Shown here one piece after another: positions 4,411 to 41,354 of a stretch of DNA of 64,000 nucleotides. The DNA is from Squalus acanthias (Eukaryota). The translations under genes were made by a program, and so were the position numbers. The stretch lies in NCBI GenBank assembly GCA_030390025.1, contig JASTWF010000048.1, forward strand, positions 1,860,001-1,924,000. The letters are read 5' to 3'. How positions within the stretch are numbered: the first letter of the stretch is position 1; each line of letters starts with the position of its first letter. The notes below the pieces were generated by a model, which worked only from the letters and a program-made list of their open reading frames with translations, made no database searches and was not told the origin of the DNA.

Positions 4411-4449
4411 GGTTTTTGTTCAGACCCTCCATCGCTCTGAGTCCCTGTG
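4411..4449 (-). other. 23-RSS of V2
   Basis: CACAGGG - 23 bp - ACAAAAACC. Confidence 0.9.
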
Positions 4450-37838: not shown

Positions 37839-37877
37839 GGATTTTGTATCAGTCTGCGGCAGGTTTGTGTCGCTGTG
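37839..37877 (-). other. 23-RSS of V10
   Basis: CACAGCG - 23 bp - ACAAAATCC. Confidence 0.92.
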
Positions 37878-38543
37878 CGAGACTCGCCGCACAGTAATAG
37901 TTCGCAGAGTCTGTCAGCTCGGAGCCTTCCAGGTGCAGAGTCAACTGGTTGTCTGCTGCCTCGAGTTTCACTTTGAATCGCTCCTCGAAACCGGGCCCAT
38001 AGCTGCCGAACTCATTGCACACCCATTCTATGGCGCCTCCCTTTTGCCTGTACCAGTGCAATCTGAAGCTGCGTTTGCTTGCTCCCTCCAAACTGCAGCC
38101 GAGAGTGAGGGGCTGTTGCCGTCGAATAGCGGCCGCGGCGGGAGTATAGAACGCAGTAGGAGCAGCCCGAATACCTAGATTAGATTTAAACAAAGAAAGC
38201 GGTTTAGAATCATGGAAGGAATATCTTAGCTTAAAACCGTAGAATCGTGAAGCACAGAAGTAGGCCATTCGGCCCATAATGCCCGTGCCGACACTGTGAA
38301 AGAACTATTTTGCGAGTGGCTTTTTCCCTTGCTCTTATCCCGTAGTACTTCAAATCCCCCATTCAAGTATTGATCCAATTTCCATTTTGGAACTTATTAT
38401 TGGATCTACTTTCACTTGCATAACAACGCAATTTCTTTCGTTTACTCTGCCAAAGGATATTTCAATGCATTGCACTGACAACAGAACCAATGTCCGAGCG
38501 ATAAGGCGACAAAGATTAATAACATTCGAGATGAGAAACACAT
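37878..38543 (-). CDS. TRBV: TCR V segment V10 (diverged family D), open frame
   Basis: Leader 38480-38543 (MCFSSRMLLIFVALSLGHWFC, weak GTCAGT donor). V exon 37878-38174: LGCSLEGASKRSFRLHWYRQKGGAIEWVCNEFGSY..YYCAASL. Confidence 0.78.
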
Positions 38544-39722
38544 CGCCCCTTCTCAGGAAGTGAGAGTCAGGGTTACTCAGCGACAACCTGTCGCCTGTAA
38601 AATTGCTCTCCTCAACGGAAATGCCACCGGTTGTGACGAACTGCACGTACGTATTGAGCAGCTCATCTTGTGATTGGACCGCACAAGTCAGCAGATTGAA
38701 CAAATGAGAAGCAGTTCCTTTACTAGCATTGTTTTTGCGAATACATCAAAATAGAAGGAACATTATAGCACGGAATCATAGAATGATACAGTGGCGAAGG
38801 AGAGCTGCCCAAGTAGTCCCAATAAACCTGCTCTGTCCCCATATTTCTGCATATTGTATGTTCGCTATTTCTAGCAAAATAAACCGGGTTAGGAAAACAC
38901 TCTTTCTTTCTGTGTTTCTTTCTCTCTCCTTCTTTCTCTCCTTCTTTCTCTCCTCCACTTTATTTATTTCTTTATTTCTTCCTTCCTTACCACGCTTCTT
39001 ACTTCATTTTTTTCTTTCCTTCTTTCATTCCTATTTTTCCTCCTTTCTTCCATGTAAAATTGCTTGATCTTCTGCTGATTAGAAATTAGATGCTTTGTGT
39101 TCCAGTGAGAATGGAGTACATGTGAGGCAACATTGTCATCCGGTGGTGCAGTCGCATCTGACACTTAAGAAACACATGAAAATAATCTCGCAATTAATAG
39201 GTTAAGAGGAAGTCATCCGACATTGCTAACCAACTTTCTTTAAGAAGAATACATTTTTTCACTATTTTCAGCAAATATTTGGCCTTCTGAGCTGAGAAAT
39301 GACATGAATTGTTAAGGCTCACTGTGGCTGCATTGTGTACCAGCTACAAGATGCAACTCGCTGAGGCTTCTTCGACAGCACCTCTAACATGTAGAACAAC
39401 AAGGGCCAAAGGTGCAGAGGAACACCATCGCCTCCAATTCCCCTCCAAGTCACACACTATCCTGACTTGGAAATAAATCACCGTTCCTTCATTATCGCTG
39501 GGTGAAAATCCTGGAACTTCGTCCTAAACAGCACCGTGGGAGTACCTTCACCAGACCTACTGCAGCGATTCAAGAAGGTGGCTCACCACCACCTTCTCAA
39601 GGGCAGTTAGGAATGGGCAATAAACACGGGCATTGCCAACGAAATCCACATCCCGTGAAAGAATTAAAAAAATTCGGTTCCTTTATATCGCCGCTGGCGA
39701 GAGGTGCCTTTCTTCCTCAGTG

Positions 39723-39761
39723 AGTTTTTGTCACGACGCCCTGCATTCTTAGAACACTGTG
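39723..39761 (-). other. 23-RSS of V11
   Basis: CACAGTG - 23 bp - ACAAAAACT. Confidence 0.95.
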
Positions 39762-40577
39762 CGCGCCCCTGTACTCTTTGTGCGCCACACAGTAATAAAT
39801 GCCGCTGTCTTGGGCCCGGGTATTAGTCAGGGAGACCCTGTAAGTGTTGTTTTCAGGGGCGAATTGGACGCCAATCCTATTTCTGTAGTTAGGTGAAGAA
39901 AAGACACCCAATCTGACGGAATCCAGGCGGTCCCCGATCTGCACGTACCAGTCGAGCCAATAGTTACTCATGTTGCCCGGCCCGATGCTGCAGTCGAACA
40001 CGGCTTCCTCCCCTGGAACCTGGACGGTGGCCGACGGGAACTGGACGACGAGTCTTTGGGAACGAACATCTGAAAGATTATGTAAAAAAACAGTCAGGCA
40101 GATCGATCGTAGATGTACAATAGTGGGTGGCAGGGAATATGAAAGGGACAGAGGCTGGAGCCGAAGAAAGAGAAAAGGAAAGAAACAAATTAGTTTTTCT
40201 GAAATGGCGGTGTTATCTCCTCGCTTCTATTTGCTCTACAGGTTATACGTCGGGTTTATTGAACTGATGCAAGTATAAACGCGCCAAACTCGAAAGTGGA
40301 AAGGACAAAGACAAACGAGCTCAATCTGGATCTGAAAGAGGGCATTTAAATAATTTTCGTATGATCCTCTATCAGAATAAGTATAACTTTTACTCGGATC
40401 AAAGAACAGCAAAGTATTTGAATTTGGTTAACGAAGTACAATATATCAATATATAACGTCATCAATACGAACATTAATTGTCGTTAACCCGATAGCAATG
40501 TTACGAAATGGACGAATAGGGTTTACTGTCTCATACATACAAGAATTGGACAGCAGAAATATGGAAAGCCAATACAT
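39762..40577 (-). CDS. Divergent V segment V11 (family E) with long germline CDR3
   Basis: Leader 40541-40577 (MYWLSIFLLSNS, GTATGT donor). V exon 39762-40069: VRSQRLVVQFPSATVQVPGEEAVFDCSIGPGNMSNYWLDWYVQ..DSGIYYCVAHKEYRGA. TGACATCA (rc) at ~40622-40629. Confidence 0.85.
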
Positions 40578-41354
40578 AACGAGAATTGTCTTCCGGTAAT
40601 AGTTCAGCCTCCTTTGCAAACTGATGTCAAACTACTTTCAGGTCGTTTTCAGAGGAGGATGGTCTCGATAAAGATTGTACTCGCGCCACAATGACCGTTG
40701 CGTCGACGACTGGTAAATAAATGAACTGCTTCTGCACTTGGAGCGAGCGCTGGGAACGCCCACCGCAAAACTGCGCACGCAACGCCTCCAATCATATGTT
40801 CGATGCAGTGCGCTGCCAACAGCGCACCAATGGAACCATTGATGGGAAGAGAGATGTAAACCCGGAGACCGTCCCAGGTTCCCGCCCACAGATGGAGAGA
40901 ATGGTTGAAAGAGAGAGACTGGACGAGAGAGGGACCGAGAGAGGCAGAAAGAGAAAGAGACTGACAGACTGACAAAGACGTATGGAGATTCAAAAGAAAC
41001 GAGGTGATACAGAGAATGAGAGAGACTGGACGAGAGAGAGAGTGAGAGGGTGAGATAGACAGGGGCAGAGGGCGAGCACATGAGGGAGGGAGAGAGACTC
41101 AGAAATGGAGGGAGAGAAAATGATAGCGACAGAGAGAGAATGAGACAGGGACAGACAAAGAGAGAGAGGGAGCAGAGAGAGAGCGAGAGAGAGATAGCAA
41201 GAAAGAGAGGAAATAAGCGAGTAAAAGAGTGCCAGAGAGAGATTGAGAGAGAGAGAGCAACAGAGAGACAGAGGGACAGAGAGGAAGAAAGCGATTTTGC
41301 AAAAAAAAAGAATGAATACTACGTTTATAAAAAATCGGGCAAGACTCGGTTGGA

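Follow-up and report, generated by a model that had tools for sequence, protein, structure and literature searches.

An intact, divergent TCR-beta V segment with a 27-nt germline CDR3 end in Squalus acanthias

We describe a V segment of Squalus acanthias (contig JASTWF010000048.1) whose germline end, 27 nt between the second Cys and the RSS, is 11-15 nt longer than in every other family that we counted. We call it the long-tailed V, and give its coordinates in the window, i.e. the whole stretch of 64,000 nt that was analysed; positions elsewhere are those of the contig. On the features that can be tested from sequence and model (locus position, intact signals, V-set fold), this segment is a member of the TRBV genes. 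The explanation that best fits our comparisons is that of an intact, divergent shark TCR-beta V whose extra tract was, somewhat more probably than otherwise, copied by local duplication from its own heptamer-spacer region, and not brought in by a D.

The segment and its locus

The signals of the long-tailed V are complete (Table 1). Leader exon, phase-1 GT donor and AG acceptor were all found where the initial annotation had called them intact, and so was the CRE-like element, TGACATCA, which we take to resemble the V-beta promoter decamer. The same annotation had counted 27 nt after YYC followed by a near-consensus 23-RSS; this is borne out by the coordinates, by a nonamer (ACAAAAACT) that agrees with the consensus at 8 of 9 positions and by the existence of a second copy. 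The translated exon scores 30.8 bits against the Pfam V-set profile (cut-off 26). Its structure model has a pLDDT of 85, falling below 50 in the final residues, and the top fold matches of this model are antibody V domains (Z 12.9, rmsd 1.8, 96 aligned), with a TCR delta V also among the matches (Z 11.2, rmsd 2.8, 96 aligned). Neither VNAR nor TCR beta V is among the 50 fold matches listed, an absence from which we draw no evidence. The FR2 Trp carried by the sisters and by the neighbouring V segments is missing. The W-to-C span is 54 residues, the shortest among the families counted (55-60 in the others), which confirms the short FR2/CDR2 noted before, but it is only one residue less than in the neighbouring family. 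A CDR2 loss of the VNAR type was rejected, given this difference of a single residue and the C' strand region retained by the model. About 20 nt past the nonamer, at 39685-39705, there is a degenerate CTCF-like word that by eye is one base off the consensus.

Table 1. Features of the long-tailed V and its surroundings (window coordinates).
Feature	Position	Strand	Remarks
CRE/decamer-like promoter motif TGACATCA	40622..40629	-	52 nt upstream of the ATG of the long-tailed V
Leader exon	40541..40577	-	12 codons + 1 nt; phase-1 donor GTATGT; 37/37 identical in second copy
Leader intron	40070..40540	-	471 nt; AG acceptor; 453/471 identical to second copy, ~70% to three sister pseudogenes
V exon	39762..40069	-	open frame; both Cys and Trp (C23/W41/C104); V-set Ig domain by Pfam and model
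Second Cys codon	39791-39789	-	
Germline CDR3 end	39762..39788	-	27 nt, VAHKEYRGA; between second Cys and heptamer
GCGCACA repeat	39779..39785	-	last three coding bases and first four heptamer bases repeated; possible remnant of a duplicated heptamer
Spacer-like tract	39766..39778	-	13 nt like the family's own RSS spacer; final 7 nt (39766-39772) are the D-like ACAGGGG
23-RSS	39723..39761	-	heptamer CACAGTG 39761-39755 (perfect), spacer 39754-39732 (23 nt), nonamer 39731-39723
3' neighbour V, CAAS family	37839..38172	-	closest related family in genome search, 29-35% identical to the long-tailed V

The length of the tail is exceptional at both scales at which it was counted. There are 16 minus-strand V segments with a 23-RSS in the window, and the 15 others end in 12 or 13 nt; it was thus right that their ends are shorter, but the range of 11-13 nt first given for them was wrong. 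Over 1,664,000 contig bases (420,001-2,124,000 minus 1,420,001-1,460,000; contig 1-420,000 and 2,124,001-2,278,436 also lie outside the scan), we counted 263 V segments whose Cys motif and RSS could both be recognised, leaving out those in which either is broken. Ends of 12 nt (126 segments) and 13 nt (94) prevail, 14 nt is found in 11, 16 nt in 30 and 27 nt in two. The second 27-nt segment is a 98% identical copy at contig 1.605 Mb, 294 kb away, in a duplicated block that is 92-99% identical. Since the same 27 nt and the same RSS recur there, a single base-calling error is unlikely to lie behind the tail. The entire window has in fact a colinear copy (contig about 1.565-1.631 Mb) at 92-99% identity, which reflects either a segmental duplication of recent date or the tandem assembly of two haplotypes. 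In four sequencing runs, contigs under two further organism labels reach at least 99% identity to the 5' part of the V, but none covers 39711-39858.

The long-tailed V stands in a V array 5' of a D-J-C unit whose D is of TRB type (GGGACA core, 12/23 RSS) and whose C has a transmembrane exon. The type of the D core agrees with the available text of PMC11754216, and one V family of the array matches the primer peptides of nurse shark beta V2 (PMC5931798, available text), which argues for a cartilaginous-fish TRB locus. This locus consists of two convergent clusters. Cluster A, on the minus strand and containing the long-tailed V, has its D at contig 1,098,961 (GGGACAGCAACAAC, 14 nt), four J and its C at 1,073,400. 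Cluster B, on the plus strand, has its D at contig 960,540 (GGGACAGGGGGGA), 30 J-like segments and its C at 1,014,600. The D of one cluster is G-rich and that of the other ends in CAACAAC; the C exons are 35% identical. The two clusters hold 175 and 88 of the 263 V segments, with V families common to both. Each has a transmembrane exon with a Lys motif of beta type. Exactly two D-like units were found by a relaxed scan of the 1,664,000 bases, a third D being absent there, and an initial reading of the locus with a single D was overturned by the one in cluster B. A strict D pattern gave no match, and a query with the D-J DNA of cluster A and its C exon at E 1e-20 returned one cluster only. In a PDB search the C exon of cluster A was not discriminating and that of cluster B gave two TCR beta chains among mostly Ig rows; C1-set exons are very numerous in this genome, and clustered. 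A TRB C exon searched against longer proteins gave zero matches.

The segment has the leader exon, V exon and 23-RSS of a conventional TRBV in translocon TRB loci (nurse shark, salmonids, reptiles). It departs from that pattern in having the shortest W-to-C span and 27 nt behind the Cys, where the remaining 261 segments have 12-16. The locus likewise has the conventional D with 12 and 23 RSS and J with 12-RSS, and its opposite orientation of clusters is that of salmonid TRB (PMC10464911, available text). In the literature searched, which leaves subscription journals outside, we found no shark precedent for two convergent TRB clusters, no V of this kind and no germline annotation of a shark TRB locus. 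Some reading frames of the locus are worth recording. An untrimmed 13-nt V end, the whole D and J are in frame for all four J of cluster A (13+14+multiple of 3) and for 22 of the 30 J of cluster B (13+13+lengths of 19, 22, 25 and 28). The second J of cluster B (contig about 961,670-961,740) has a near-consensus nonamer 23 nt from the heptamer and a weaker one 12 nt away, a dual spacing that could be chance or a dual 12/23 signal.

The relatives of the long-tailed V are distant. Protein searches yielded no orthologue at E 0.001 among near-length and longer proteins, and the 139 matches among cluster representatives that they did yield are at most about 35% identical where they align over most of the domain. 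In the genome (150 of 329 candidates scored), all 27 matches to its protein lie on the TRB contig, and it is at most 35% identical to any other family. We built a midpoint-rooted tree of 38 rows, made of 21 V segments of the locus (from 864 kb of the contig, after thinning at 72% identity) and 17 V domains taken out of 15 proteins among the 139 matches, its rows being without a named shark TRA/D, TRG or NAR-TCR set. Here, the two 27-nt copies sit on a long branch and group (95/94) with the CAAS family, with V segments of fish and amniotes, and with a single VH-like row. The group includes a catshark V, Astyanax and Megalops V, and turtle, gar, platypus and opossum V, at 23-34% identity to the long-tailed V; its amniote rows are named only Ig-like in their sources and are presumably TRDV-like. 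The segment is thus grouped with the short-CDR2 V lineage of ray-finned fish TRB and amniotes, from which it differs by its long branch and this low identity. These comparisons suggest a divergent resident of TRB, an import from another locus not being evident among the candidates scored and the rows of this tree. The CAAS family itself is represented between 25900 and 38200 by four tandem V segments with short CDR2, three of which have an extra Cys pair around CDR2 (WMC...SCG); it groups with the short-CDR2 V segments of fish and amniotes and not with the other beta families.

Sister copies and the origin of the extra bases

The long-tailed V belongs to a family of 13 members, namely the two intact 27-nt copies and 11 broken sisters (eight in cluster B, three in cluster A) that are 77-81% identical. 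All 13 keep a like neighbourhood in the array. The frame is lost in every sister, and nine of them have one extra exon base in common relative to the long-tailed V. Their tail is of 18 nt (GASEDA type) and is devoid of the D-like tract; intron identity between the tail types is only about 70%, as measured on three of the 11 sisters. In the 11 sister copies the RSS is interrupted after the fourth spacer base by an insertion of 570-594 nt, which looks to us like a LINE end. Past this insertion, the other 19 spacer bases, the nonamer and some flank match the long-tailed V at 19-22 of 29 positions in all 11 sisters; none of 200 shuffles reached 22/29 for the one sister copy tested. The heptamer is also common to both types. 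The halves of the sister spacer agree with the spacer of the long-tailed V at 17/23, against 3/23 and 6/23 for the two D spacers, and at no more than 10/23 with the 104 other V spacers. Since the sisters carry matching heptamer, spacer and nonamer, the RSS is the property of this V family and older than the divergence of the 27-nt and 18-nt tails. The spacer insertion and the frameshift have been amplified into 11 dead copies over both clusters; V cassettes were therefore presumably copied between the opposite arrays after the insertion event.

The extra bases of the tail resemble the spacer of this RSS. The 13-nt tract matches the sister spacer at 11/13 (P 0.0002-0.001 ungapped, 0.0006-0.003 local) and the spacer of the long-tailed V itself at 10/13 (P 0.02-0.05). 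The D of cluster B gives 9/13 (P 0.10-0.22 by the measure used for spacers), and the 104 other V spacers give at most 9/13, none reaching 10. The repeat of GCGCACA has a P of 0.12 alone, and a gapped alignment of tail to RSS one of 0.02. Because the tract matches the family spacer better than any D, a local duplication is its probable source: duplication or template switch would have copied heptamer-spacer sequence into the coding end. This result must be interpreted with care, as the likeness to the spacer was noticed post hoc among several comparisons and, when local scores are compared, 6 of 86 other spacers match the tail as well as its own spacer does. A clean tandem duplication also misfits, for it needs the loss of 7 bases in the copy and about 12 bases of sister-type tail, and the 27-nt and 18-nt tails can equally be aligned with a plain gap of 9 nt. 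The sister pseudogenes are the only outgroup to all of this. Nor did a donor emerge elsewhere: an 18-mer of the tail is confined to the two copies, apart from a single occurrence on another contig that has one mismatch and is at the control level.

A V end lengthened by local duplication has been described in cattle. In IGHV1-7, an 8-nt duplication extends the 3' end and fixes the first CDR3 residues as TTVHQ (PMC8508064 and PMC5994613, available parts). The long-tailed V would share with it the mode of lengthening, along with the fixed first residues. It differs in being a TCR segment and not an antibody one, in its likely template, an RSS spacer and not coding sequence, and in having no ultralong D.

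Alternatively, the tail might be an ordinary small insertion followed by drift in a little-used member of a decaying family, both likenesses of the extra tract being due to chance. Eleven of the 13 family members are indeed broken by frameshift and interrupted RSS, the long-tailed V itself sits on a long branch and has lost its FR2 Trp, and one 9-nt gap suffices to align both tail types. 'Rogue' V segments, in which the RSS is displaced, have been described in zebrafish TRA (PMC10322711, available text). Against this stand the 11/13 match to the sister spacer (P 0.0002-0.003), the full V-set fold of the model, and the integrity of leader, promoter motif and RSS in the two copies alike. The two copies differ by four silent and two replacement changes (pN/pS 0.15, P 0.027), a sign of selection that rests on six changes and is accompanied by a 300-nt flank better conserved (299/300) than the exon. 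We regard insertion and drift as rather unlikely.

Possible use of the tail in joining

The long-tailed V presumably rearranges like its neighbours, with cleavage at its own 23-RSS and joining to a cluster A D-J. The resulting beta chains would have a CDR3 that starts with up to nine germline residues, three charged and one aromatic, and that before trimming is about 4-5 residues longer than usual (untrimmed C-to-F of 21-25 against 16-20).

A different use, which we consider unlikely, is that the tail, however it arose, has been kept as a stand-in for D. The V would then join J directly (23/12), as the initial annotation had proposed for a hard-wired CDR3, and give a semi-invariant beta chain with a CDR3 of normal length. 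The 27 nt are the sum of a 13-nt V end and the 14-nt D of cluster A, and in all four J of this cluster the number of nt before the Phe is divisible by 3. Hence, blunt V-J joins would be in frame and as long as blunt joins of a 13-nt V end, D and J (16, 17, 20 and 18 residues). But the match of frame alone has one chance in three, the heptamers of two of these four J were assigned by weak motifs, and 22 of the 30 J of cluster B are out of frame with a 27-nt end. The tail is identical in both copies, although zero changes over 27 nt are what one expects at their divergence. Joining of V to J is permitted by the 12/23 rule and D-less beta chains exist in people, but the available text of the same source (bioRxiv 10.1101/2021.03.05.434088) gives direct V-J joining, B12/23, as rare in mice and human lines. 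In addition, the N and P bases of most nurse shark alpha junctions (PMC5931798, available text) would blur any invariance. It is a speculation, and one that we deem improbable, that all these steps took place: that a copy of the recombination signal of this V became coding, that its germline CDR3 thereby grew by exactly one D-length, and that the V now joins J directly, innate-like T cells carrying the semi-invariant beta chain made without D.

The position of the RSS at V ends is tightly held in sharks, as described for TRA in the available part of PMC10322711, so that the long-tailed V, with an end longer by 14 nt and its RSS intact, offers a natural test of D bypass and of a hard-wired beta CDR3. 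Can a shark V-beta bypass D, B12/23 being known from mammals, and have cartilaginous fish hard-wired beta CDR3 loops? The segment also points to a way in which the DNA of a recombination signal may turn into CDR3. If used, it would give receptors a partly pre-written antigen-binding loop; should its end simply be trimmed away, or the segment go unused, it would be no more than a curiosity within a single gene family.

The proposed germline V-D join and the joined genes of sharks

The segment had been proposed to be a pre-joined V-D, a reading that our comparisons do not support: the tail does not match the D of its own cluster, the RSS is owned by the family, the flanks are unmatched and 129 V segments with RSS still lie between the V and its D, with neighbours as in the sisters. 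Two of three tests of such a join went against it, the RSS and flank not being of D type and the intervening DNA being neither removed nor inverted. Comparison with the species' TRBD, which the initial annotation had named as the way to check the join, gave a local score for the tail against the cluster A D that is below most shuffles (P 0.99; 6/14 in register, P 0.39), matches of the sister spacer to the two D spacers of 3/23 and 6/23, and flanks at chance (P 0.26 over 300 nt for the flank of the cluster A D, 0.97 over 60 nt for that of cluster B). A 9-mer of the tail also occurs between D and J1 of cluster A; we set it aside, with a hand estimate of about 0.02 by chance among several comparisons.

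The D of cluster B is closer. It has the 7 nt ACAGGGG in common with the tail (7-mer P 0.03-0.08, local score P 0.04-0.11), at a background rate of such matches in 27-mers of about 1% (17/1910 among V exons and 26/2454 across the locus). Since the RSS predates the split of tail types, a join can be saved only if it is placed before this split and the sisters lost the D core. A 13-nt V end would then have been fused to a 14-nt G-rich D, the RSS of which became that of the family, with a loss of 9 nt in the sisters later. The D-like tract does begin at base 14 of the tail, where a D would, its ACAG lines up in register with the 14-nt cluster A D, and near register the cluster B D is matched at 9/13 (P 0.03-0.04). 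The spacer of the long-tailed V and that of the cluster B D have a 7-mer in common (shuffle P 0.002-0.007); two of 105 V spacers show a 7-mer match. Tail end and RSS together score highest among 193 V units against the cluster B D unit (44.0, the next being 43.5; shuffle P 0.006). The two D spacers are widely diverged from each other, so an old join could be hidden, and germline joining is known in shark Ig genes. Against this, 16 of 104 other V spacers score equally high with the cluster B D spacer, the best match of the long-tailed V spacer is another V spacer (global score 21 against 11.5), and the sister spacer is without the shared 7-mer. The flanks are unlike those of either D, and the matching D belongs to the opposite cluster. 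Moreover, joining in place should have deleted or inverted the array, whereas the 129 V segments and both D-J-C clusters are intact. An ancient join is thus, to our minds, very improbable.

The germline-joined Ig genes of cartilaginous fish (VJ in light chains, VD or VDJ in heavy chains) resemble the long-tailed V in presenting a long germline CDR3 in a shark antigen-receptor gene. They lie in small clusters and have lost the intervening DNA and the V RSS at the joint (PMC2193156, available text), whereas the long-tailed V keeps the RSS of its family and its place in the array.

Two other V segments of the window, with heptamers at 4449 and 11250, are broken and yet have an intact RSS; in one a stop replaces the second Cys, and in the other the frame is shifted.
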